From: Candidatus Bipolaricaulia bacterium
GTDB lineage: Bacteria > Bipolaricaulota > Bipolaricaulia > JBHIAT01
Length of the DNA: 13,342 nucleotides
Assembly: GCA_046758705.1 (NCBI GenBank)
Contig: JBHIAT010000100.1
Coordinates: 1 to 13,342 of the forward strand
Direction of reading: 5' to 3'
Under the pieces are notes generated by a model, which saw nothing but the letters and a program-made list of their open reading frames with translations, did not search any database and was not told the origin of the DNA. Position numbers and translations under genes: made by a program. Shown here in pieces: positions 335 through 12,202 of the stretch; within the stretch, counting starts at the first letter, position 1; each line of letters begins with the position of its first letter.

Positions 335-450
335 CTCATGTCCACCTCCTCGTGGATCTTGTGAGGTTGAAAAGTATTTAAGGCACCTTTAGGGGGCACC
401 CACCACCGCCATTCCATCTACAGGTTCTGACCAATCTTCCTCAAAAATAG

Positions 451-480
451 AAGATACCACACCGATCTTCCCTCTGTCAA
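451..480 (-). promoter_or_regulatory. Putative sigma70-type promoter for the SBP gene
   Basis: Minus strand reads TTGACA (480-475), an 18-nt spacer ending in TG-g (extended -10), then TATCTT (456-451). Implies a leader of about 110 nt. Confidence 0.6.
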
Positions 481-756
481 GTGACTGGAGATTATCCGGA
501 TGTATGTAAACACCCGAAGGTCGTTACGTTTATACCCCGTATCGTTGGTCATGCGGAACGGTCGGAGAGGGGCTCGTGTCTTGGTAGGGCTGAACTCTGC
601 CTTCGTGGGCACAATTAAAGTAGAACTTTATCACCATGCAGAGCTACCAAACACCAAGCCCGTATCCATTGGTGAGTTCATCCAGAAAACCCATGAATTC
701 TGCAGACCAGTTATGACAACTTTCGTATAACCAAGCGCGAATTCAGGAGGTCGATC

Positions 757-2085
757 ATGTTGAAGGGACTGGGAAAACGAAGGTTGATGATGATGGTGCT
801 GTTGCTGGTGAGCTTGCCGGTCCTGCTCATCGGTTTATCAACCGTAGGGTCAACGGATGGGACGAGCACCATCAGACCGGTCAATCTACTCATTGCCTGG
901 GACACCTCCGGGTCGGTGGCAGGCGACAAGTGGGAGGCTATCCGCGCGGCCAGTTATCGGTTGATGGACAACCTGGAGCCAGGAGATCGGGTCGCCTTGT
1001 TGCACTTTGACACTTATGCCTACGTCCTGACGTCTGAACCGATCAAAATACGGGGCGCGGAGGAAAAAACCAAGATCCGAGAGGTCTTCGATTCACTCAC
1101 CCCCGACGGCCAGTGGACGTTTTTCAACGGGCTGTTTGAGGCAATCGAACTCTATGAGGCTGAACACGGGCCGTTTTCGACCATCTTGCTCACCGACGGA
1201 CTCAGCGACCCCGGCCCGGGTCGAACCACGGACGATGAGCCCGGGCAGAAGGCCAATCAGGAGATCCCGATGGACGGAGTGCTGATCTATGTACTGGGGG
1301 AGGATGAGCAGTTGCCGCAGGTACTTGAAGCCCGTTCGGACTCAGGGGCCCAGCTTGAAGGTTCTGGGAGTGTCCTCAGCATCCCAGTTGAAAAGAACGA
1401 TCAGCTCGTGGAGCTCCTGCGTCAAAATACCAAGGTGATGCAGTCCAGCTTCGAGGAGGAGGAGGAGGCAACCCGTCCCGTACCCGGAGTTGAAGCCAAA
1501 TCTTCGGCTCCCAATGCCACCGATGGGGATCGGACTGAGGGTCCCAGTCTCATGCGGTCGATCCTCAACGAGGCCAAGGAAGGATCTTTGGCGTTCTGGC
1601 AGTGGATGAGAGATCACTCCCGCCTGTTCGTGGCTCTAGGGATCGTCGCAGCGCTCATACCGGCTGGGACGGTCCTCTCCCGACGGTGGAGACAGGCGGT
1701 GGAAGAGTTGGAGAAGGAGATAGGAGATCTTGAGCTTGAGGAGGATCTGGATGATCAGATCTTTCTCCACATCAAGGTTGATGGGATGCAGTATCGTTAT
1801 GAGATCTGGGAGAGAGAATGGCAACCCATCGGGCCGAACGAGGAGATCCCCGTCCCTGAGCTGGACAAGATGATCGCTGAGGTCCGGGGGATTGAGGATT
1901 CAAGGGTTCAACTCAACCCCCTCACCTTCGGCATCCGGGTCAACAGCAATGAACTCGATCCGGAGCAGGTAGCCACGCTGATGCCCGGCGATGTCATCCG
2001 TTACCAGGATCTCCAGATGACCGTTGAGTTAGGAGAGCACGACGATCGGCCCGAGGAGGAACCCTCCGCGGATGAGGAGGTATAA
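757..2085 (+). CDS. Membrane protein: N-terminal signal/anchor, vWA domain, TM helix, degenerate FHA-like cytoplasmic domain
   Basis: AGGAGG SD just upstream. Basic plus hydrophobic N-terminus (KRRLMMMVLLLVSLPVLLIGL). Full MIDAS: D49-T-S51-G-S53, T121 (GQWT), D147 (LLTDG), plus GDRVALLHF. TM aa 290-308 followed by RRWR. C-terminal GIRVN...LMPGDVI pattern typical of the FHA C-terminal strands. Confidence 0.85.
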   Translation: MLKGLGKRRLMMMVLLLVSLPVLLIGLSTVGSTDGTSTIRPVNLLIAWDTSGSVAGDKWEAIRAASYRLMDNLEPGDRVALLHFDTYAYVLTSEPIKIRGAEEKTKIREVFDSLTPDGQWTFFNGLFEAIELYEAEHGPFSTILLTDGLSDPGPGRTTDDEPGQKANQEIPMDGVLIYVLGEDEQLPQVLEARSDSGAQLEGSGSVLSIPVEKNDQLVELLRQNTKVMQSSFEEEEEATRPVPGVEAKSSAPNATDGDRTEGPSLMRSILNEAKEGSLAFWQWMRDHSRLFVALGIVAALIPAGTVLSRRWRQAVEELEKEIGDLELEEDLDDQIFLHIKVDGMQYRYEIWEREWQPIGPNEEIPVPELDKMIAEVRGIEDSRVQLNPLTFGIRVNSNELDPEQVATLMPGDVIRYQDLQMTVELGEHDDRPEEEPSADEEV

Positions 2086-2093
2086 CGGTTAAC

Positions 2094-4835
2094 ATGGTCA
2101 CGCGAAGCTTAACACCGATTCAGATTGTCCGAAAGGCCCTTCTGATCTTTGTCGGGGGTTCAGGACAGGAGGTGGCCCACCGGCTCCTGATGAGAGGGGC
2201 GTTCAATTCGATCACGACCACGATCGTCGTGATCGATACCGATCTGACCTACCCAGAGTTGGCCCCCTACTTCATCAAGTTGGACAAAGTGCGAGCCAGG
2301 CTGGTCAAAGCGCATCCCGAGGAGTATCCGCACTTCGCCGATTATCTTGATCTGGAAGGGATACCTGACATCGGGAAGAAGCCCGGAACTGGACAGATCG
2401 GATCTCAGGGACTCTTGCTGACTCTAGCGACCGTGCCAGCCATCCGGAAGGGGCTCGATGAGGCGATCCGAAAGCTTGTGGATCCGAAGCTTCGAAATCG
2501 AGCGGCAGAGGCCGGTCTGGAACTGGTTGAGGAGGAGAAGATCTACTGTCTGATCTTTCGGTCATCCGCCGGCGGCACAGGAAGCGGTTCGAGAAGCGTG
2601 ATCATCTCGCTGGCCGACGAGCGGCTGACCGAGGAGCTTGGAGACAGCAACAACTTCGATATTGTCGACGTCGTCCTCGCGCGCAACGTCTTTGAGCACT
2701 CGACGAACATCGACAAGAGGAAGGCGAGGATCAATGAGGCGGCATTCCTGGTGGATAAGCTGTACAATCACAGGTTGACAGAGGGCTCGAGGATGATCGA
2801 GGTAGAGCTGGCCACTGAAAATACCGAAGATCGGGGGATCCGGATGGGGGTGGGGCCCGACATGACCTTCTGGGTGATGGACTGCAACTCCACCCAGCTG
2901 AAGGAAAAGCCAGCGGTCCATTTGACCCTTAGCGACTGTTATGAAATGATGACCAATCTGGCCTGCCTCTATATCGATGGCGAGATGATCCCTCAGTTCG
3001 ACGCCCGGTTGGCCAACCTGATCGAACAGCAGGGATATATCGAGGAGGTCCGGGGGCAACCGGCGATCTTGAGTGGATTTGCTTACGTCGAAGTCGTCTA
3101 CAATTCGGAGCTCCTGTTCCGGTACATGACCGCCGAATTCGGTCTGGATGTTCTGGCTGACATCGTGGGGAATACTGTTGATGGAGATGAAGATGTGACG
3201 GCAGCCGCGGTGAAGGTGGAGATGAACCGGGCGGATGAGGCACTCAAGGCAGCGGCCCAGAGAGCGATCGAAGCTCTGGAACGGACGGAATCTCGCTACA
3301 TCGGGAAGATGGTGGACAGAGCCGCGAGACAGATCAAAAAGTCGGCTCTGCGGGCGGGAAACGCCTTCAACAATGCGATCAAGAGTGCCAAGATCCAGCT
3401 CGAAAAGGTGAAGACCGACGTGTTGGAGGAGGTCCGACAGGAGATCCATGCGGAGTTGATGAAGCAGTCCATCAACCACGGGAGGAGGTCGATCGAGGAG
3501 CTGATGATCGGGTGTGACTCCCTTGTTTCCTGTGCGGATGAGCAATTGAAGCGCATTGAGAAGAGACGCAAACGGACTGAGAGGGAGCTTACACCGCTAC
3601 GGGCCAGGGTCCTCCATGAGACCGTCGGATTGCTAAAGCGGCTGATCATGGCGGTGAGGTACCGCAGACAACAGCGAATGGAGGCCCAGCTGTACCTCTC
3701 AAAACTGAGAGAGGTGAGCGCCCTGAGGATCACGGAAGCCCAAGCAAGCGAGTCGAAGGACGCAGCGAGACGGCTTAAGAGGATTCTGGAGGAGGGGCTT
3801 GCCGGTCTCGACGGTGAGGAGAAGTGGCACGCTCAGGCTCGGGCGATTCTAGCGGGGGAGAAGCGGAAGACTGTAACGGACCTTATGGGAAGGGCCTACG
3901 ATCAGGATTGCCGACCACTCGCCAAGATCGCCATGGAGTTAGAGGGCGGCATGGCCAACAACACCGACCGTATCCGGAAGATCGCCTGGGAGATCAGAGA
4001 AAGCTCGGCATCCAAATCCCTTCCCCCCAGTGAGGTGATGGTGTACCTCGAGGGATACGCCGAGGAACTCTTCGGCCATATCAGGGAGGAGACGGTTATC
4101 GACCGGTTGAAGGAGCTTCGGACCGAGCGAGGTAAGGTCGTCGCTTCCTATATCGATGAGCTGATCCAAGGGCCGGCGTCACCCTTTATCCAGCTCAATG
4201 ACAAGCTTTTCGATGAGGCTCCCCCGATGATCTCAATCATCGGCGCCCCTGAGACAGGGGGACGTGACCTGAAGATGAAGGATGAGCTCGTGATCCATCA
4301 CCAAAAGGATCGGGTGAAGATCCTGACCGTTATCCCATGGATCCCGCCGTTTGCACTCTTCGGGATCACGAAGGATTTCAACGCGCTCAGGCGGGTAAAG
4401 GACGGTCATGATGACTGGTTTGGCGAGCGGAACTGGCTGGAGACCTATCAGATCGATGGAGCCGGGCAGCTGCCTGTCAGGCGATTTGTGACCGACAATG
4501 GCCTTGTCCTGGGGCTCGCCGCCGGCGTTCTGAACAAGCAAAGCGGAGGGTGGTACAAATTCGACGGAAAGACGATCAATGGCCTGCAAAACCTGAGAAG
4601 AGAGCTGCAGAAGAACGAGCAGTTGCAACAAAGAATTGAGCAGTACTGGATAGCGCTTTTCCAGCAGAGGGGGAAGGAGGGTGTCATCGCCCATCTCGAA
4701 GTGGCAAAGGCAAAGAGCCTCAATGGGACGTTGGCATTCTCCGAAAGGATTGACGAGATCGTGACGAAGCTCCGCAACGAGCCCAGCGACGGGAGGGTAT
4801 TGAGCCGAGACCGGCTTTTGAAACTGCTCTTCTGA
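2094..4835 (+). CDS. Tubulin/FtsZ-like GTPase-domain protein (FtsZl1 / Tubulin_2 type) with long helical C-terminal extension
   Basis: Ordered tubulin-fold loops: LLIFVGGSG (T1, aa 16-24), VVIDTD (T2), GTGQ (T3, aa 98-101), SSAGGTGSG (T4 signature, aa 157-165), RINEAAF (T6-like). About 550 further aa, rich in E/K/R/A and probably helical or coiled-coil. Starts 8 bp after the vWA gene stop. Too long and divergent for canonical FtsZ. Confidence 0.85.
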   Translation: MVTRSLTPIQIVRKALLIFVGGSGQEVAHRLLMRGAFNSITTTIVVIDTDLTYPELAPYFIKLDKVRARLVKAHPEEYPHFADYLDLEGIPDIGKKPGTGQIGSQGLLLTLATVPAIRKGLDEAIRKLVDPKLRNRAAEAGLELVEEEKIYCLIFRSSAGGTGSGSRSVIISLADERLTEELGDSNNFDIVDVVLARNVFEHSTNIDKRKARINEAAFLVDKLYNHRLTEGSRMIEVELATENTEDRGIRMGVGPDMTFWVMDCNSTQLKEKPAVHLTLSDCYEMMTNLACLYIDGEMIPQFDARLANLIEQQGYIEEVRGQPAILSGFAYVEVVYNSELLFRYMTAEFGLDVLADIVGNTVDGDEDVTAAAVKVEMNRADEALKAAAQRAIEALERTESRYIGKMVDRAARQIKKSALRAGNAFNNAIKSAKIQLEKVKTDVLEEVRQEIHAELMKQSINHGRRSIEELMIGCDSLVSCADEQLKRIEKRRKRTERELTPLRARVLHETVGLLKRLIMAVRYRRQQRMEAQLYLSKLREVSALRITEAQASESKDAARRLKRILEEGLAGLDGEEKWHAQARAILAGEKRKTVTDLMGRAYDQDCRPLAKIAMELEGGMANNTDRIRKIAWEIRESSASKSLPPSEVMVYLEGYAEELFGHIREETVIDRLKELRTERGKVVASYIDELIQGPASPFIQLNDKLFDEAPPMISIIGAPETGGRDLKMKDELVIHHQKDRVKILTVIPWIPPFALFGITKDFNALRRVKDGHDDWFGERNWLETYQIDGAGQLPVRRFVTDNGLVLGLAAGVLNKQSGGWYKFDGKTINGLQNLRRELQKNEQLQQRIEQYWIALFQQRGKEGVIAHLEVAKAKSLNGTLAFSERIDEIVTKLRNEPSDGRVLSRDRLLKLLF

Positions 4836-4915
4836 ATATTTAATCAGCTCAAGAAAGCGCCAGAAACCGCTTAGCTCAACGATATTTACTCTCAAGTCCT
4901 TCTGAGAGTCCAACC

Positions 4916-4961
4916 TGAAGTTGCGTCCCCCCAAAACATAATCTATATAATTGAAGTTGCG
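4916..4961 (+). promoter_or_regulatory. Putative promoter region for the dhaKL-aldolase operon, with a 10-bp direct repeat
   Basis: TTGCGT at 4921-4926 and TATAAT at 4946-4951 (19-nt spacer, suboptimal). TGAAGTTGCG occurs at 4916-4925 and 4952-4961. Confidence 0.35.
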
Positions 4962-5013
4962 ATGAGGACGCTCCATTGGACACGAGTATGAGTAACAAAC
5001 GGGGGTGAGGTTT

Positions 5014-6015
5014 GTGAAAAAACTGATGAACGCACCTGAGCGGTTTGTCGACGAAATGTTGGAGGGATTGCTACTCGCCCACCCTGATCAGATCAGATCG
5101 GTTCGATCAGATAATCGGGCGCTGATACGGGCAGATGCTCCGCAGACGGGTAAGGTCGGGATCGTCACCGGAGGAGGGTCCGGTCACCTCCCTGTCTTCC
5201 TCGGCTATGTCGGAAAGGGATTGGCCGGCGGCGTCGCGGTCGGCAATGTCTTCTCGTCACCGAGTTCCGAACAGATTCTCGATGCGACACGCGCGGTTCA
5301 CGGTGAAGCAGGCGTTCTCTACCTTTATGGCAACTATAGCGGAGATGTTCTGAACTTCGATATGGCGGCTGAGCTGGGCGAGCTGGAGGGGATAGAAACG
5401 GAGACGGTGCTCGTCTCCGATGATGTGGCCTCCGCCCCCAGATCGGAATGGCAAAAACGCCGTGGGGTGGCCGGGTTGTTTTACGCTTATAAGGTCAGCG
5501 GGGCGTGCGCGGAGACGGGCGCGGATCTAGACGCCGTCGTTGCTGTGGCGCGTAAGGTCGTCCGTCGAACCGCCAGCATGGGCGTGGCCCTTACACCCTG
5601 CACGATCCCGACCGTCGGGAAACCGACCTTTACCATTGGGGCGGACGAAATGGAGGTCGGCATGGGGATACACGGAGAACCTGGTGTCCGACGAGGCACG
5701 CTTGAGCCGGCAGACCAAGTGACAGAGCACCTCGTCGAGGCAATCGCTGATGATCTGAAGCTGAAAAGCAGCGATGAGGTATCTGTGTTGGTCAACGGAT
5801 TGGGAGCAACACCGCGAGAGGAGCTCTATATCATTTATCGCAAAGTACACGAACTGTTGATGGATCGCGAAGTGCGCATTGGCCGCCGCTATATCGGGGA
5901 GTTTGCAACTTCCCTCGAGATGGCAGGTGCTTCCGTCTCTGTGCTCAAGCTGGATAACGAACTGAAGGAACTGCTCGACCGTCCTGCATTATCGCCGTTT
6001 TTTGTGCAGGGGTAA
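5014..6015 (+). CDS. dhaK: Dihydroxyacetone kinase family, substrate-binding subunit DhaK (Dak1 domain)
   Basis: Motifs GGGSGH-x-P, GNVFSSPS, NYSGDVLNF, RRGVAG, EVGMGIHGEPG, LVNGLGATP, TSLEMAG. Start moved to GTG 5014, which gives the canonical MKKLxNxPE N-terminus and has GGGGTGAGG upstream. Confidence 0.9.
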   Translation: MKKLMNAPERFVDEMLEGLLLAHPDQIRSVRSDNRALIRADAPQTGKVGIVTGGGSGHLPVFLGYVGKGLAGGVAVGNVFSSPSSEQILDATRAVHGEAGVLYLYGNYSGDVLNFDMAAELGELEGIETETVLVSDDVASAPRSEWQKRRGVAGLFYAYKVSGACAETGADLDAVVAVARKVVRRTASMGVALTPCTIPTVGKPTFTIGADEMEVGMGIHGEPGVRRGTLEPADQVTEHLVEAIADDLKLKSSDEVSVLVNGLGATPREELYIIYRKVHELLMDREVRIGRRYIGEFATSLEMAGASVSVLKLDNELKELLDRPALSPFFVQG

Positions 6016-6022
6016 AGTGTGT

Positions 6023-6679
6023 ATGGCTGGCCCTGACGTAATGAACGCTGACCACCTCAAACAGATGTTTCAATCGGTCGCTGACGCTTTAAGCGATCAA
6101 AGAGAGTACCTCGGCGAACTCGACGCCGTAGCCGGCGACGGAGATTTAGGCGTGACGATGTCGACCGGCTTTACGGCCGTTGCACAGGAATTTTCCGACT
6201 CGGAAGAGGACGATATCGGAAAGGTGTTACTGGCCGCGGCTCAAACCCTGAATCGGACCTCGCCGTCGACTATAGGAACGCTGTTTGCCACCGCGCTGCT
6301 CCGCGCCGGAAAGCAGGCGATGGGTAGAACCGAGGTGACAGCGCTCGACTGGGCCGACCTGATCGAGGCCGCAAGACAAGGCATCGAAGCGCGCGGCAAG
6401 GCAAAACAGGGAGATAAGACCGTACTTGATGCGCTGGTCCCCGCTGAGGAGGCGTGGAAGCGCATTGCCGCCTCCGGGGGCTCCCTCAGTGAGTGCGCCA
6501 AGGCGGCCCTCGAAGCTGCGCGGGAAGGTGTTGAGGCAACCCGTGCACTGACTCCGAAGATAGGCAGAGCAAGTTGGCTCAAGGAACAGAGCACTGGACA
6601 ACCTGATCCGGGTGCCGCGGCGTTAGTCGTCATCTTAGCGGGCGTTGTTGGCTACCTAGACAAGGAGGACATAATATGA
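6023..6679 (+). CDS. dhaL: Dihydroxyacetone kinase family, nucleotide-binding subunit DhaL (Dak2 domain)
   Basis: Motifs LDAVAGDGDLG, GDKTVLDAL, GRASWL, DPGA. Follows dhaK. Start is ATG 6023 or 6041. Confidence 0.9.
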   Translation: MAGPDVMNADHLKQMFQSVADALSDQREYLGELDAVAGDGDLGVTMSTGFTAVAQEFSDSEEDDIGKVLLAAAQTLNRTSPSTIGTLFATALLRAGKQAMGRTEVTALDWADLIEAARQGIEARGKAKQGDKTVLDALVPAEEAWKRIAASGGSLSECAKAALEAAREGVEATRALTPKIGRASWLKEQSTGQPDPGAAALVVILAGVVGYLDKEDII

Positions 6680-7443
6680 GCTCACCCAACAGAGTTAAAG
6701 AGGCACTTGAGGCCGGCAAGACGGTGATCGGCCCGTTCATGAAGCTGACCGATCCTGCCGCCGTTGAGATCATCGGCCATGCCGGATTCGATTTCGTGAT
6801 CATCGATGCCGAGCACGGGCCGATAAGCATGGAGTCCACCCAGAACATGGTGCGGGCCGCTCAGTGCGTCGGGATTACGCCGATCATCCGGGTGCGCGAT
6901 AATGACCCCACGTTGATCCTCCGGGCGCTGGACATCGGCGCCGGCGGCGTTGAGGTACCGCAGATCAACAAAAAGGCGGCGGCCGAGGCACTCGTTTCGG
7001 CGGCAAAGTTCGCACCGGAGGGTAGCCGGGGCGTATGCCGGTTCGTCCGTGCGGCACGCTACTCCGCGAGGCCGCGTGAGGCGTATTTCAAGGGTGCCAA
7101 CGTGGAAACCATAACCATCGCACACCTCGAAGGGATAGAGGCGATCGAGAATATGGAGGGCATCCTGTCGGTAGATGGGTTGGATGTGGCGTTTATCGGG
7201 CCCTATGACCTGTCTCAATCTATGGGCATACCGGGGAAGGTACAGGATCCGGCAGTGGTCTCGAAGATGGAAGAGGTTGTCCAGGCTGCGAAGCGACTGG
7301 GCAAAGTTGTGGGGACGTTCGTGGACGATGTACCCACAGCTAAGCGATGGCTGGCGGCGGGTGTGCAATACATCTCGTTCTCTGTGGATGTAGGCATTTT
7401 CTATGACGCGTGCGCCAGGGCGGTCGCAGAGTTGAGGAGCTGA
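6676..7443 (+). CDS. HpcH/HpaI (GarL/RhmA-like) class II pyruvate aldolase
   Basis: Motifs GFDFVIIDAEHG, IIRV, ALDIGAGG, PEGSRG, FIGPYDLS. AAGGAGG SD. ATGA overlap with the dhaL stop. Confidence 0.88.
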   Translation: MSSPNRVKEALEAGKTVIGPFMKLTDPAAVEIIGHAGFDFVIIDAEHGPISMESTQNMVRAAQCVGITPIIRVRDNDPTLILRALDIGAGGVEVPQINKKAAAEALVSAAKFAPEGSRGVCRFVRAARYSARPREAYFKGANVETITIAHLEGIEAIENMEGILSVDGLDVAFIGPYDLSQSMGIPGKVQDPAVVSKMEEVVQAAKRLGKVVGTFVDDVPTAKRWLAAGVQYISFSVDVGIFYDACARAVAELRS

Positions 7444-7450
7444 CGGGCCG

Positions 7451-8383
7451 TTAGGCTTGCGACCAGGTGACCACCGGGTTGGTTAACCTCCCCAGCCCCT
7501 CGACCTCGATGCTCACCCGGTCCCCTGGCTTTAAGAAGACTTGGGGATCGCGAAATACGCCCACCCCGTGGGGCGTTCCGGTGGCGATGATATCGCCCGG
7601 CATCAGGGTGAACGCTCGACTGGTGAACGCCACCAGCTCAGGGACCTTGAAGATCATCTCCCCGGTGCTCGAGTCCTGGAGCACCTGGTCGTTGACGGTG
7701 CATCGGATCGCCAGACGGTGGGGATCCTCGATCTCGTCGTGGGTCACCAGATACGGTCCGATCGGACAGAACGTATCCAGCGATTTTCCTCGAACCCACT
7801 GACCGTCATCGAACTGGAGATCACGGGCGGAGACATCATCGAGGTTCATATAGCCGGCCACATAGTCGTACGCCCGCTCGGGAGAGACGGACCGCGCCCG
7901 CCTCCCGATCACGACCGCAAGCTCGGCCTCGCAGTCGACCTGCTGGGCGAGATCCGGCGGCCAGGTGATTGGAACTCCCGGACCGATGATCGCCGACGGG
8001 TACTTGGCGAAGATGATCGGCCGTTCGGGTGGATCGACCCCCTGCTCCCGGCAGTGATCCATGTAGTTCAACCCGATGGCAACGATCTTCTGCGGGTCTG
8101 GGACCGGCGCCGTCAGTTTCACCTCGTTCGGCCCGAAGACGACCTCCCCCGCAAGGTCTTGTTCCTGCTCCAAAGCGGACTCTATCCAGCGGAGCGTCTC
8201 ATCAGCCGCCTGCCGCGCCGGTTTACCCTGTTCCAGAAATGTCCGCATCGTCGGAGCGAGCGACTCTCCGGTTCGCTCGGTATGGGCGCGATTCAGATCG
8301 ACGATCTGATCGTCTCCGCTTCTGCCTTTGAGGACAGTCCCGACAGCGTCGCGTCCTTCCCTGATAAAGGTGACCAATCGCAT
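7451..8383 (-). CDS. Fumarylacetoacetate hydrolase (FAH) family protein
   Basis: Motifs IGLNYMDH, PIIFAK, D-x-EAELAVVIG, DVSARDLQ, WVRGKSLDTFCPIGP, PGDIIATGTPHGVG. Purine-rich SD upstream. Confidence 0.92.
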   Translation of the reverse strand: MRLVTFIREGRDAVGTVLKGRSGDDQIVDLNRAHTERTGESLAPTMRTFLEQGKPARQAADETLRWIESALEQEQDLAGEVVFGPNEVKLTAPVPDPQKIVAIGLNYMDHCREQGVDPPERPIIFAKYPSAIIGPGVPITWPPDLAQQVDCEAELAVVIGRRARSVSPERAYDYVAGYMNLDDVSARDLQFDDGQWVRGKSLDTFCPIGPYLVTHDEIEDPHRLAIRCTVNDQVLQDSSTGEMIFKVPELVAFTSRAFTLMPGDIIATGTPHGVGVFRDPQVFLKPGDRVSIEVEGLGRLTNPVVTWSQA

Positions 8384-8402
8384 CGATCTACTCTCCCCTC
8401 CT

Positions 8403-8434
8403 CTACTTTCTAACTTTTAACTTTTTAACTTTTC
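8403..8434. repeat. Short AT-rich tandem repeat: four ACTTT cores with 7-8 bp period
   Basis: ctactttc-taactttt-aactttt-taacttttc, with cores at 8405, 8413, 8420 and 8428. Overlaps the stop codon of the DHDPS-like gene. Confidence 0.6.
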
Positions 8435-9336
8435 ACTCTATTGAGCACACCCAGCGCGTCCAATTGACTGTGGAGCTTCTCCATCTCCTCCGGTCCGAGC
8501 CGGGTCAGCGGAGCCCGAGGGCCGCCCACCGACAGGCTGCGGAGCTCCAGGGCCGCCTTGAAGCCGGAGATCGGCCATTCCATCAACGTTGCCCGGATCG
8601 CGGTCACTTGATCTTGAAGCCGTTTCGCCTCCTCCAGATCCCCCGAGATGAACGCTTCGTATATGCCGACCACCAGCTCCGGGAAGACGTTGGAGGTCGC
8701 GGAAACGCCTCCTGTTGCGTTCAGCGACAGAGCCGAGTAAATGAGCGCATCGTTGCCTATAAGGAACGTGAAATCCTCGATCCGTTGTACCGCTTGGTAG
8801 AACCAGTTGAGATCCCCGGAGCTGTCCTTGATTCCCCGGACGTTGGGGATCTCGGCCAGCGCCTCCAGGGTCTCCAGCGACAGGGTGTTGCCGGTGCGTG
8901 GGGGGATGTGATAGATGAAGATCGGCAGGTCGATCGATTCGGCCACCGCCCGGTAATGGGCGAGCGCTCCGGCATGGGACAGGGAGTAGTAATAGGGGGT
9001 GACCACGACCACGCCGTCGGCACCAACCCGTTCAGCATACTGACTCAGCGCCACCGTCTCGGCCGTCCCCGCAGATCCGACTCCGGCCAGCACCGGAACC
9101 CGGCCGGCGGCCTGGTCGACCGCCGTCTCGATCACCCGACGCTTCTCTTCGAAGTTGAGCAGCGGGAATTCTCCATTGGTCCCGAGCACGAACACACCGT
9201 GAACGCCGCCTCGGATCACAAACTCCAGATGTTTGCTCGTTCCTTCAACATCGAGTTCGCCGTCGTCATCGAACGCCGTGAACGTCGGCGTGATGATCCC
9301 GTGAAGCACATCATCAAATCTGTTCTCTACACCCAT
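8425..9336 (-). CDS. DHDPS/NAL-family class I aldolase (DapA-like; probably a 2-keto-3-deoxy sugar-acid aldolase or dehydratase from context)
   Basis: Motifs LGTNGEF, GRVPVLAGVG, VVTPYYY, IYHIPPRTG, Schiff-base GIKDSSG. Start set at ATG 9336 with GAGGTG SD 6 nt upstream, overlapping the eda stop. Confidence 0.85.
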   Translation of the reverse strand: MGVENRFDDVLHGIITPTFTAFDDDGELDVEGTSKHLEFVIRGGVHGVFVLGTNGEFPLLNFEEKRRVIETAVDQAAGRVPVLAGVGSAGTAETVALSQYAERVGADGVVVVTPYYYSLSHAGALAHYRAVAESIDLPIFIYHIPPRTGNTLSLETLEALAEIPNVRGIKDSSGDLNWFYQAVQRIEDFTFLIGNDALIYSALSLNATGGVSATSNVFPELVVGIYEAFISGDLEEAKRLQDQVTAIRATLMEWPISGFKAALELRSLSVGGPRAPLTRLGPEEMEKLHSQLDALGVLNRVKS

Positions 9337-9346
9337 ATGGAACACC

Positions 9347-9985
9347 TCATTTGTCTGCCCGCGCCTGCTTCACGGCCTCCACGAACCGTCGGGCCGTATC
9401 CGTTAGCTTCGCCCAGTCCTTATTTGCCACCGCCATCTTGTCCACCATGGCGCTGCCCGCGCCCACGGCGCACGCGCCCGCCTTGATGAACTCCGGCGTG
9501 GTCTGGATGTTCACCCCACCCGTCGGCATCAGCCGCACTTGCGGGAACGGACCCTTGAGATCCTTGAAATAGGACGGTCCACCCACCGACGCCGAGAACA
9601 CCTTCACCACGTCCGCACCCGCTTGCCAGGCCGTCAGGATCTCCGTCGGCGTGAATCCCCCTGGCATCACCACCTTCCCGTAGCGCTTGGCCATCTCGAT
9701 CATGCCTAAGTTCAACGCCGGACCTACCACGTACTCCGCTCCGGCCAAGATCGCCGCCCGCGCCGTCTCGGCATCCAGCACCGACCCCACGCCCACGATC
9801 GTATCTTCCATCTTTGCCGCCGCCTCGATCACCTTCAGCGCCCCCGGCACAGTCATTGTCACCTCGATCGCCACCACGCCCCCGTCGCGCAGTGCCTTGG
9901 CCACGTCCATCAACTGCGTCGGCGAATCCGCGCGCAGCACGGCCACCACACCGCAATCGATAATCCGGTCCAGGATGCTAGCCAT
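9347..9985 (-). CDS. eda: KDPG/KHG aldolase
   Basis: Motifs VVAVLRA, GGVVAIEVT, VGVGSVL, PGGFTPTEI, GADVVKVF, GPFPQVRLMPTGGV. GAGGGAGGGG SD. Adjacent to kdgK. Confidence 0.92.
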   Translation of the reverse strand: MASILDRIIDCGVVAVLRADSPTQLMDVAKALRDGGVVAIEVTMTVPGALKVIEAAAKMEDTIVGVGSVLDAETARAAILAGAEYVVGPALNLGMIEMAKRYGKVVMPGGFTPTEILTAWQAGADVVKVFSASVGGPSYFKDLKGPFPQVRLMPTGGVNIQTTPEFIKAGACAVGAGSAMVDKMAVANKDWAKLTDTARRFVEAVKQARADK

Positions 9986-10065
9986 CGTCCCCCCTCCCTC
10001 AAAAAATATCCGGATGCTTCACTCAAGTACTCGAACCTCTGAGACCAGGGCAGCTCCATGCGGCC

Positions 10066-11109
10066 TTACCGGCGGATGCGCGCAGCGCCGCTTTTGGTCG
10101 CCGCCTCCGTCTCCGCCCGGGTCGCCCAATTCACGTCTCCCGGGAAGGTATGGGCCAACGCTGAATAGGCCCCCGCAAAGTCCACCGCCGTCTGCAGATC
10201 CTTGTCCTCTAACAGGCTGACGATCAGGCCCGCTGAGAAGCTGTCTCCCCCCCCCACCCGGTCCACGATCTCCATATCTTCATAGATCCGGCACAGGTAG
10301 AACTCCTTGCCGTCGAACAACAGTGTCCGCCAGTCGTTTAGAAGCCCCGTTTTGGCCACCCGCAGCGTCGTCCCCACGTACTCCACGTTCGGGTACTGCT
10401 CGACGACCCTGCGGGCCACCTCCTTGTAGCTCTCGGGATCCAGCGCGCTGTAGTCCTCAGTCGTCCCCTCAGCCTTCAACCCCAGGACCTTGTCGAAGTC
10501 CTCTTCATTCCCGAGCAGCACCTTCACCAGCGGCATGAACTGCTTCGTTGTCTCCTGCGCCTGCTCCGGACTCCAGAGCTTCGATCGAAAGTTTAGATCA
10601 TAGCTCGTCGTCACACCCACCTGGTTCGCCGCCTTCAGTGCCTCTAAGGTCGTCGCCGCCGCGCTCTCCGACAGTGCCGGCGTAATTCCGCTCACGTGAA
10701 ACCACCGTGTTTCGTCAAAGAGCGCCTTCCAGTCAATCATCCCGGGCTCGACCTTTGAGATCGCCGAGTGCCCTCGGTCGTAGGTCACTGCGCTGGCTCG
10801 GGGCCCCACTCCCACTTCCAGATGGTAGAACCCGTTTCGCTCCAGGCCAACCCCGTCGAACGGCACCCAGATGATGTGGGACATATCCACCCTATGTTCG
10901 CGGCCCTTATTTCGGATGAGTCGCCCCGTCCAGTTGTCCACCAGCCGGGACACCCACGCCGTCTTCAGGCCTAAGTGCGCGCACCCCACCGCCACATTGT
11001 ATTCACCCCCGCCGACTTCCACGTCTAACTTCGTCGCGTTTTCCAACCGTCGGTACTCCGGCGACGACAGCCGGATCATCGCCTCTCCGAACGTTACCAC
11101 ATCGTACAT
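10066..11109 (-). CDS. kdgK: 2-dehydro-3-deoxygluconokinase-like PfkB sugar kinase
   Basis: Probable start ATG 11109 (MYDVVTFGEAMIRLS). Motifs GGGEYNVA, YDR, FHVSGITPALS, SYDLNFRSKLWS, DRVGGGDSFSAG. Directly upstream of eda. Confidence 0.85.
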   Translation of the reverse strand: MYDVVTFGEAMIRLSSPEYRRLENATKLDVEVGGGEYNVAVGCAHLGLKTAWVSRLVDNWTGRLIRNKGREHRVDMSHIIWVPFDGVGLERNGFYHLEVGVGPRASAVTYDRGHSAISKVEPGMIDWKALFDETRWFHVSGITPALSESAAATTLEALKAANQVGVTTSYDLNFRSKLWSPEQAQETTKQFMPLVKVLLGNEEDFDKVLGLKAEGTTEDYSALDPESYKEVARRVVEQYPNVEYVGTTLRVAKTGLLNDWRTLLFDGKEFYLCRIYEDMEIVDRVGGGDSFSAGLIVSLLEDKDLQTAVDFAGAYSALAHTFPGDVNWATRAETEAATKSGAARIRR

Positions 11110-11134
11110 AGCTTCAATCTCCCCTCCGTTGATC

Positions 11135-12202
11135 TCACCATCCCATCGCCTCCAGGATCGCCTTCTGGGTCGCTGCCACCGAGATCGGCTCCGGCGCGAA
11201 CCGGATCGCGCTCTCGGGATCTTTGAGACCGTGGCCGGTGAGCGTGCAGACGACGGTTGCTCCGTCCTCAAGCAGGTTGGCTCGATCGAGCTTGATCAGG
11301 CCGGCCACAGAGGCCGCCGAAGCAAGCTCGCAGAAGACCCCCTCCAAATCAGCGAGCTGTCGATAGGCGGTCGTGATCTCCGCATCGCTCACCGAGTCGA
11401 TCAGTCCCCCTGATTCGTCCCGGGCGGCCTCGGCCCGCTTCCAGCTCGCCGGATTCCCGATCCGAATCGCAGTTGCGATGGTTCTGGGCTTCTCAATCGA
11501 CCGGCCACAGACGATCGGTGCAGCATCCTCAGCCTGAAAGCCAAGCATCCGTGGCAGCTTGTCGATCTTTCCGGCCCGATGGTACTCCCGGTAACCTTTC
11601 CAGTAGGCGGTGATGTTCCCGGCGTTCCCCACCGGGAGGGCATGGTAGTCAGGCGCGCTTCCAAGCCGGTCACAGATCTCAAACGCCGCCGTCTTCTGTC
11701 CCTCGATCCGGTAGGGGTTGACCGAGTTCACCAGCGTGACCTGATCCTTGAACTCCTCCGCGATCTTCCGGACCAGATCAAGAGCGACGTCGAAACTCCC
11801 CTCGACTTGGAGCACGTTTGCCCCGTGGATCATCGCCTGAGACAGCTTGCCCAGGGCGACCTTGCCCTTCGGGATCAGGATGTAGGAACGCAGCCCCGCC
11901 CGGGCAGCGTAGGCAGCCGCGGCGGCGGCGGTGTTCCCCGTCGAGGCGCAGATCGTGGCCTCGGCCCCATCCTCCACCGCTTTGGAGATCGCCACCGTCA
12001 TCCCCCGATCTTTAAACGAACCGGTTGGGTTGAGCCCCTCATACTTCAGGTGGATCTGGATGTTGCTGTCGAACAGACGCTCCAGTCGTTTCGCCCGAAT
12101 CAGCGGCGTGTTTCCCTCGAGAAGGGTGATAATGTGGCGATCCTCCTCCAGGGGGAGATAACGTCGGTAGGCTCGGATCACTCCCGGCCACATCTTATTC
12201 AC
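11135..12202 (-). CDS. thrC: Threonine synthase
   Basis: Motifs LLEGNTPL, KYEGLNPTGSFKDRG (PLP lysine), CASTGNT, VNSVNPYRIEGQKT, PVGNAGN, TIATAIRIGNPASW, TLTGHGLKDP. Start is GTG 12202 or ATG 12193; no clear SD for either. Confidence 0.95.
   Translation of the reverse strand: MNKMWPGVIRAYRRYLPLEEDRHIITLLEGNTPLIRAKRLERLFDSNIQIHLKYEGLNPTGSFKDRGMTVAISKAVEDGAEATICASTGNTAAAAAAYAARAGLRSYILIPKGKVALGKLSQAMIHGANVLQVEGSFDVALDLVRKIAEEFKDQVTLVNSVNPYRIEGQKTAAFEICDRLGSAPDYHALPVGNAGNITAYWKGYREYHRAGKIDKLPRMLGFQAEDAAPIVCGRSIEKPRTIATAIRIGNPASWKRAEAARDESGGLIDSVSDAEITTAYRQLADLEGVFCELASAASVAGLIKLDRANLLEDGATVVCTLTGHGLKDPESAIRFAPEPISVAATQKAILEAMGW

Follow-up and report, generated by a model that had tools for sequence, protein, structure and literature searches.

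A predicted minimal FtsZl1-vWA gene pair in a Bipolaricaulia bacterium, encoding a membrane-spanning vWA protein and a far-diverged tubulin/FtsZ-like protein

The question raised by this locus is what two adjoining genes of a Candidatus Bipolaricaulia bacterium, one for a vWA (von Willebrand factor type A) membrane protein and one for a 913-aa tubulin/FtsZ-like protein, make together, and to what end. The stretch analysed (the window) is the entire 13,342-bp contig JBHIAT010000100.1 of a 3.7-Mb metagenome-assembled genome, 94% complete (G000); genomes of the same phylum that were compared (n = 184) are labelled Gnnn. The first open reading frame of the pair, ORF1 (protein P0001), encodes 442 aa and the second, ORF2 (P0002), 913 aa, with an intergenic gap of 8 bp between them (2086-2093); the frames and coordinates given in the initial annotation, which proposed the pair from sequence alone, are exact. 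There is little doubt that the pair is an FtsZl1-vWA module with the architecture set out below. The best explanation of the whole, held with about even confidence, is a minimal, far-diverged FtsZl1-vWA operon that would serve as an accessory envelope-surveillance device of the conflict or defence type.

ORF2 had been assigned to the FtsZl1/Tubulin_2 family, with a tubulin fold in its N-terminal part, and both sequence and structure comparisons bear this out. Pfam Tubulin_2 (PF13809) matches aa 60-348 at 38.6 bits, where the cut-off is 27 (E 9.7e-10). A model of aa 1-367 made with AlphaFold2 (AF2) from a six-row alignment (predicted local distance difference test, pLDDT, 70.5; predicted template modelling score, pTM, 0.78) gave 283 PDB matches at E<=0.001 in Foldseek, with FtsZ or tubulin in all 45 listed, and was aligned by VIA-align to the nucleotide-binding domain of T. 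maritima FtsZ (1w5f_A) over 184 residues, with Z 16.8 and a root-mean-square deviation of 3.6 Å. Sequence searches against PDB chains returned nothing significant for either the N domain or the C part. ORF2 resembles cell-division FtsZ in its nucleotide-binding-domain fold and in the glycine-rich T1 and T4 loops, which can be read directly in the sequence; it differs in having no FtsZ_C domain, 550 extra residues and no placeable T7 loop. Of the ordered tubulin GTPase loops first reported, T1 and T4 are confirmed. The genome's sole FtsZ_C match is found at G000:C11 (E 5.5e-31); with this ordinary FtsZ at another locus, ORF2 is not the protein of cell division.

The remaining two-thirds of ORF2 can be traced to the same family by profile comparison. 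The middle of the protein is helical and looks like a coiled coil, judging from the residues it is made of and from a rough count of heptads, which gives heptad-like windows at aa 360-541, and is followed by a C-terminal domain with conserved blocks (Table 1). When profiles were compared by hhalign with a canonical profile of six FtsZl1 proteins of the same phylum (815-939 aa), Prob was 99.3 (E 1.2e-20) for the ORF2 N-domain subfamily profile and 96.4 for that of the C part (E 1e-9, 337 columns, canonical positions 509-871 of 950); the latter match is significant only against the six-sequence profile, with Prob 0.12 against one canonical sequence. In BLASTP, the match of P0002 to the canonical G082 protein is confined to the surroundings of the T4 loop (E 1e-5). 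As both halves align in order with canonical FtsZl1, ORF2 is a full-length, extremely diverged FtsZl1 protein.

The extent of this divergence is apparent from how few relatives could be retrieved. A single-sequence phmmer search with ORF2 against 1.84 billion representative proteins (E<=0.001) returned 12 proteins including the query, 10 of them real relatives, and did not reach canonical FtsZl1. All 10 are of a split form, in which the two halves are encoded by two genes: five stand-alone N-type relatives (348-483 aa) match ORF2 aa 4-359 (E 1e-37 to 2e-29, 30-35% identity), and five C-type relatives (540-550 aa) match within aa 394-913 (E 7e-17 to 5e-9). Three N-type and three C-type proteins would seem to pair up, judged by same-size contigs from the same sources. 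One further match, P0010 (576 aa, one repeated unit; ORF2 aa 137-174, E 4.5e-16), was excluded as a relative; its sequence reads as translated sequencing-adapter concatemers, a database artefact. A joint alignment of P0002 with the ten relatives was also dropped, the C-part proteins having been misaligned onto the tubulin domain. Neither P0001 nor P0002 had a relative in word-index protein searches, an alignment-based protein search found only generic vWA proteins (P0018, P0019), tblastn against plasmids gave no match, and locus scans recovered the module in neither genome contigs nor viral contigs. A metagenome-contig scan yielded one 2.3-kb locus, L004, carrying just the 3' end of a C-part gene; within L004 988-2324, a 169-aa ORF without a family lies 3' of that gene, and further on the other strand carries an ORF with a likeness, judged by eye, to an IS3-type transposase.

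Within the phylum, PF13809 occurs in 9 of the 184 genomes (8 above the cut-off) and the subfamily of ORF2 in 2. The N-domain profile matches three: its own genome, G112 (E 9e-103) and, weakly, G082. In a tree of the N domain (12 rows, with the 5'-short G126 protein excluded), the subfamily stands apart from the canonical proteins with support of 100/100; the fused ORF2 groups with two split high-GC proteins (100/99), and four split low-GC proteins fall outside. Two fissions, or one fission followed by re-fusion, require two changes each and are equally parsimonious. The split relatives, with a tubulin-domain gene and a coiled-coil/C-domain gene, mark the domain boundaries of the fused protein and show that each half can work as a chain of its own.

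ORF1 had been described as a vWA protein with an intact metal-ion-dependent adhesion site (MIDAS) lying outside the membrane, and the evidence agrees. The domain is matched by PF00092 (Table 1), and the MIDAS residues can be read directly as D49-T-S51-G-S53, T121 and D147 (motif DTSGS at nt 901-915); D49, S51, S53, T121 and D147 are all invariant in P0016, the orthologue from G112. In a Kyte-Doolittle scan two segments, and no others, are hydrophobic: aa 9-31 and aa 289-308. K3, K7, R8 and R9 precede the first, which may be a signal anchor or else a signal peptide that is cleaved off; SRRWRQ, containing the RRWR noted at the outset, comes after the second. Because of the two hydrophobic segments and their flanking charges, the vWA domain and the tail are predicted to lie on opposite sides of the membrane, as first proposed. 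The simplest topology has the N-terminus in, the vWA domain out and the tail in; ORF1 would be a type I protein if aa 9-31 is a cleaved signal peptide.

In the ESM Atlas model, all 10 structural rows for aa 325-430 of the predicted cytoplasmic tail are FHA/YscD-type-like (TM-score by query 0.71-0.79), and 8 of the 10 carry the name FHA or Yop-YscD_cpl on the part that aligns; this comparison has predictions on both sides, and the whole-protein Atlas model has a pLDDT of 0.54. An AF2 model of P0001 from a two-row alignment (pLDDT 44) was too poor and was left out of the fold search; it is all-beta at aa 335-424, where pLDDT is <50. The FHA profile (PF00498) has no match in the ORF1 tail, and a PDB sequence search with the tail alignment gave no match at E<=10. 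An FHA-like fold, as a beta-sandwich of about 110 residues, is a good lead for this region, not a family membership.

A vWA gene followed by an FtsZl1 gene is seen repeatedly in the phylum, in keeping with the known association that the initial annotation cited. Seven other loci lie above the Tubulin_2 cut-off, and six of these have visible neighbours, the G126 contig consisting of the gene alone. A vWA-type protein is encoded directly upstream, on the same strand, in four of the six (G112, G091, G130 and G022), and a membrane partner lies beside FtsZl1 in five. In G091, a 574-aa protein with a signal peptide, a VWA_3 domain (E 2.8e-12) and an FHA domain (PF00498, aa 451-521, E 2.2e-5, above the cut-off) is followed by an 815-aa Tubulin_2 gene product; its aa ~411-425, a hydrophobic stretch below the scan threshold, is read as a membrane helix, so that a vWA-TM-FHA (TM, transmembrane) layout would be shared with ORF1. 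The upstream gene in G130 encodes a membrane protein of 1,215 aa whose vWA domain is N-terminal, and that in G022 a homologue of this protein (E 1.2e-27). G082 has an upstream membrane protein of no known family, and G175 has no partner upstream. That ORF1 and ORF2 are two unrelated genes brought together by chance can be given almost no credence, with the same order in G112, G091, G130 and G022 and in the published catalogue (in the part of PMC2875224 drawn on here); the one point on the side of chance is that a complex prediction of the ORF1 tail against the ORF2 N domain and aa 547-913, with a score of 0.00, gave no verdict either way. The genes, their domains, the homology of both halves of ORF2 to FtsZl1 and the conserved order of vWA protein then FtsZl1 are established.

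Three further observations concern these loci and their surroundings. In L019 (G175:C31, 11393-13045) a KAP-family P-loop NTPase gene is convergent to a canonical FtsZl1 gene. In L018 (G022:C73, 5254-6147) an IS200-type transposase gene lies ~80 bp past the 857-aa gene that follows FtsZl1 and ends its cluster, on the same strand. At L022 (G181:C236, 8259-10603), two adjoining 394-aa genes, the first matching Pfam Tubulin (PF00091, E 1.5e-8) and not Tubulin_2, are flanked by genes for a protein with four PKD domains and an SPFH/Band 7 protein; the two would seem to be another, distinct kind of small tubulin-like pair.

The closest relative locus, in G112, has the order P0016 (vWA-TM-tail), P0017 (tubulin domain) and C-part gene on one strand. 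P0016 (586 aa) is hydrophobic near its N-terminus and has a vWA domain with DTSGS that is 39% identical to that of ORF1 (E 3e-18), a stalk, a TM helix and a beta-type tail; its Pro/Glu/Thr-rich linker or stalk of ~260 aa is the counterpart of ORF1 aa 183-288. The C-part gene starts 50 nt after P0017 and then leaves the contig, and its remainder is found at the end of a second contig (E 3.7e-56). There it is overlapped by 40 nt by a gene for P0020, a 448-aa protein with a signal peptide, a C-terminal hydrophobic stretch and no family, after which come Cas10 (PADLOC E 5e-113) and a RAMP/Csm4 fusion, forming a type III CRISPR-Cas block. As this relative has four genes and the canonical loci of the phylum carry larger partners, the description of the present pair as a minimal version is a fair one.

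Table 1. Positions of the module's features in the window, with one related locus in G112 for comparison.
Feature	Coordinates	Strand	Description
ORF1 (P0001)	757-2085	+	Membrane protein with predicted outward vWA domain and cytoplasmic beta-rich tail
N-terminal hydrophobic segment, aa 9-31	781-849	+	Kyte-Doolittle maximum 2.61
vWA domain, aa 43-182	883-1302	+	PF00092 at 35.5 bits (cut-off 23.8), E 1.5e-8
Remaining ectodomain and acidic, Ser-rich stalk, aa 183-288	1303-1620	+	Composition E 14%, S 12%
Second transmembrane helix (predicted), aa 289-308	1621-1680	+	Kyte-Doolittle 2.26; SRRWRQ follows
Cytoplasmic tail domain (predicted), aa 325-430	1729-2046	+	All-beta, FHA-like by predicted structure alone
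Shine-Dalgarno-like GAGGAGG	2074-2080	+	Within the 3' end of ORF1, 13 nt ahead of the ORF2 ATG
ORF2 (P0002), 913 aa	2094-4835	+	Full-length, far-diverged FtsZl1-type protein
Tubulin/FtsZ-fold GTP-binding domain, aa 1-357	2094-3164	+	PF13809, AF2, Foldseek, VIA-align, hhalign
T1-like GGSGQE, aa 21-26	2154-2171	+	Direct reading
Tubulin signature (T4 loop) AGGTGSG, aa 159-165	2568-2588	+	Direct reading
Helical middle region, aa 368-620	3195-3953	+	A/R/E/L/K-rich; coiled-coil-like
FtsZl1-type C-terminal domain, aa 621-913	3954-4832	+	Conserved blocks IPxFAL, GWYK.xG and the extreme C-terminus
Upstream spacer	335-756		422 bp, GC 0.483
Downstream spacer	4836-5004		169 bp, GC 0.438; precedes unrelated Dak1 gene
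C-part gene end, P0020, Cas10, RAMP/Csm4	L026 (G112:C264) 3718-9888	-	

The layout at the junction of ORF1 and ORF2, with a Shine-Dalgarno-like site inside the end of the first gene, suggests that the two are translated as a coupled pair. The fused 913-aa frame was also considered as a possible assembly artefact. This was set aside: in three public runs of one study, contigs covering 600-5100 are identical to the window with zero differences, and single records cross both the ORF1/ORF2 junction and the N/C junction inside ORF2. The three runs are not independent, as the DNA may itself have come from them. In X4, a fourth run belonging to that study, there are fragments 95-99% identical to both genes (window 600-4254), with 22 substitutions and 0 indels; 19 of the substitutions are coding, 13 non-synonymous and 6 synonymous over 1,492 coding bases covered. 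This hints at fast protein evolution, with errors possible in low-depth contigs. No RNA run is listed among the public runs with this sequence.

The same data bear on whether the pair might be the decaying, non-working remnant of a larger system, which is improbable. The fourth, overlapping membrane gene of the G112 locus, for which the P0020 query has no match in G000, would fit such a loss, as would the missing GTPase and kinase partners of published systems and the excess of non-synonymous changes in run X4; the last is a weak hint of decay because the contigs are of low depth. Set against these are frames that stay open across 1,355 codons, an intact MIDAS and tubulin signature, a ribosome-binding site at the 8-bp junction, and no insertions or deletions in any of the four runs compared.

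The preferred explanation, that of a small surveillance operon, can be put as a mechanism in which ORF1 would span the membrane, holding a MIDAS vWA domain on an acidic stalk outside and an FHA-like beta-sandwich inside. ORF2 would be cytoplasmic, with a GTP-binding domain, a long helical region and an FtsZl1 C-terminal domain. A ligand at the outer vWA metal site may alter the inner tail, in its state or in how it clusters, and the tail would recruit or nucleate GTP-dependent FtsZl1 assembly at the membrane; the assembly may then remodel or perturb the membrane or the division machinery. Here we infer the topology, from hydrophobicity and flanking charges, as well as contact between the two proteins, polymerisation and a biological role.

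Published gene catalogues place the pair among known arrangements, as far as the parts of those papers drawn on here extend. In Makarova and Koonin (2010; PMC2875224), vWA genes are found in a majority of FtsZl1 operons, some of their vWA proteins having signal peptides or TM segments together with an intact MIDAS; supplement file 5 of that paper includes two-gene rows of vWA and FtsZl1, such as Cagg_1317/Cagg_1316, and FHA genes adjoining FtsZl1 in Planctomycetes. The present pair is like these operons in having a gene for a membrane or secreted, MIDAS-intact vWA protein directly upstream of FtsZl1 and a regular FtsZ in the genome; it is unlike them in its extreme divergence, in the split form of the other subfamily members, in the FHA-like module fused to the vWA protein itself, and in having no GTPase, kinase or OmpA partner in this window (PMC2875224). 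In the GAP1-N2 GTPase-centred conflict systems of Kaur et al. (2020; PMC7159879), tubulin-plus-coiled-coil genes occur with an extracellular, TM-anchored vWA protein. Shared features are the fusion of the tubulin domain with a C-terminal region that is coiled-coil or alpha-helical, the anchored vWA domain, a predicted action at the membrane and a proposed role in biological conflict; the GAP1/DO-GTPase, FNIII-repeat proteins and HSP70 of those systems are not in the window, and the systems are described there from Firmicutes and Actinobacteria, whereas the present module belongs to a small uncultured phylum (PMC7159879). The literature search found no experimental study of FtsZl1 or of a tubulin-like plus vWA system, and unsurveyed papers could exist.

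Signalling across the envelope onto an FHA protein has parallels in other systems. In type VI secretion, PpkA/Fha1 is reportedly a pathway in which a surface threat is relayed to an FHA protein at its end. The Esr pathway, in the part of the preprint drawn on here (PMC13622651), resembles the mechanism proposed for ORF1 and ORF2 in its extracytoplasmic sensing, its vWA component and an FHA module controlling a cytoplasmic machine. Both pathways differ from the present pair in using MoxR ATPases and Ser/Thr kinase/phosphatase pairs, for none of which the window has a gene, and no FHA sequence signature is visible in the ORF1 tail.

In considering what the module is for, a role in conflict or surface sensing and not in housekeeping is tentatively preferred, at somewhat less than even confidence. 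It is favoured because of the patchy distribution, extreme divergence and variable partner genes, and because relatives have CRISPR-Cas, KAP NTPase and transposase genes close by. A housekeeping machine for membrane remodelling or vesicle formation, with the vWA protein as an anchor or assembly factor in place of a sensor, is rather unlikely. Such remodelling was proposed for FtsZl1 by Makarova and Koonin (PMC2875224), and it would suit both the membrane partners beside FtsZl1 at five of the six other loci with context and the metabolic neighbourhood in the window. The occurrence of the family in so few genomes of the phylum (9/184, and 2/184 for the subfamily), its divergence, the variation of its partners and the CRISPR-Cas genes beside the G112 module would be unusual for a housekeeping function. 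A mechanical adhesion link, in which the vWA domain would bind a neighbouring cell, a matrix or some surface, with an FtsZl1 filament as its anchor in the manner of an integrin, has a low probability: an intact MIDAS on an external stalk is suited to it, and vWA domains are adhesion modules in eukaryotes (summarised in PMC2875224), yet the window has no other adhesion or pilus genes, no evidence of a ligand or partner is at hand, and the distribution is patchy.

Several results weigh against the surveillance reading and its mechanism. FHA domains bind phosphothreonine through the residues G-R, S-x-x-H and N; the G-R / S-x-x-H signature is not visible in the tails of P0001 or P0016, and aa 309-442 of ORF1 match no Pfam family even at E<=10. 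The G091 protein shows VGRD...RRH, and its three-way tail alignment with P0001 and P0016 is too weak for columns to be assigned. The FHA-like tail of the initial annotation accordingly holds as a likeness of predicted structure, with the G091 protein as an analogue bearing a true FHA domain, and fails as a match to an FHA hidden Markov model or a visible signature. BLASTP of P0001 and P0016 against that G091 vWA-FHA protein shows no pairwise similarity, so the common vWA-TM-FHA layout may be convergent, or very old. In ORF2, the T7 loop and the FtsZ activation domain are not placeable, with model pLDDT <50 at aa 304-344, and T6-H7 is not identifiable in FtsZl1 according to Makarova and Koonin (PMC2875224); polymerisation by the FtsZ mechanism is therefore not assured. 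As for the genetic context, the genes around the pair in the window serve transport and catabolism and form no defence island, no GTPase family of GAP1/DO type or otherwise is found among the 11 other ORFs of the 13.3-kb contig, and the partners of published systems (GAP1-type GTPase, kinase, OmpA, HSP70) are all absent from the window. PADLOC-DB 2.0 gave 0 families for P0001, P0002, P0016, P0017 and the G091 pair.

The surroundings of the pair are otherwise as first described, with AT-richer spacers on both sides (GC of the two genes 0.57) and unrelated transport and metabolic genes beyond. A gene for a solute-binding protein (2-334, - strand) is divergent from ORF1, and the intervening upstream spacer presumably holds the promoter of the module; the promoter scan gave no sigma-70-like site on its + strand, and the sole site, 480-451, belongs to the - strand. 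The terminator scan detected nothing terminator-like in 4836-5004, both scans gave no more than chance on the + strand, and Rfam has no family across the window. A family scan of the 11 other ORFs identified the 3' neighbours as Dak1, Dak2, an HpcH/HpaI aldolase and more catabolic enzymes. These form a cluster at 5005-12202 on both strands, with Dak1, Dak2 and the HpcH/HpaI aldolase on the + strand, while the - strand carries genes for an enzyme of the FAA-hydrolase family, a lyase of the DHDPS family, a KDPG/KHG aldolase, a PfkB kinase and a PLP-dependent enzyme; the cluster probably encodes a sugar-acid or deoxy-sugar pathway. A 379-aa ORF at the contig end (12199-13338, - strand) is without a Pfam family. 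A 247-aa ORF (4233-4976, - strand) antisense to the conserved 3' part of ORF2 is likewise without a family and is probably no gene.

The pairing itself has already been catalogued by comparative genomics, in 2010 (PMC2875224) and 2020 (PMC7159879), going by the parts of those papers drawn on here. What is new is a subfamily beyond the single-sequence reach of canonical FtsZl1, with a fused/split polymorphism, together with the two-gene minimal content and, as far as the fold is given by a model, an FHA-like tail on the vWA membrane protein itself. FtsZl1 is the most diverged branch of the tubulin/FtsZ superfamily, and this two-gene version is the simplest system for asking whether such a protein binds GTP and assembles, whether the tail contacts it and what the vWA domain binds. 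A more specific proposal, offered as speculation and doubtful as it stands, is a self-sufficient transmembrane signal-to-polymer device, in which a captured phage, an epibiont or envelope damage would cluster phospho-independent FHA-like tails and thereby nucleate FtsZl1, perhaps through its conserved C-terminal end. If true, the module would do in bacteria what integrin-to-cytoskeleton coupling does elsewhere, with no need of a kinase, GTPase or chaperone partner, and the split and fused forms would mark the nucleotide-binding half and the coiled-coil/C-terminal half of FtsZl1 as separable functional units.

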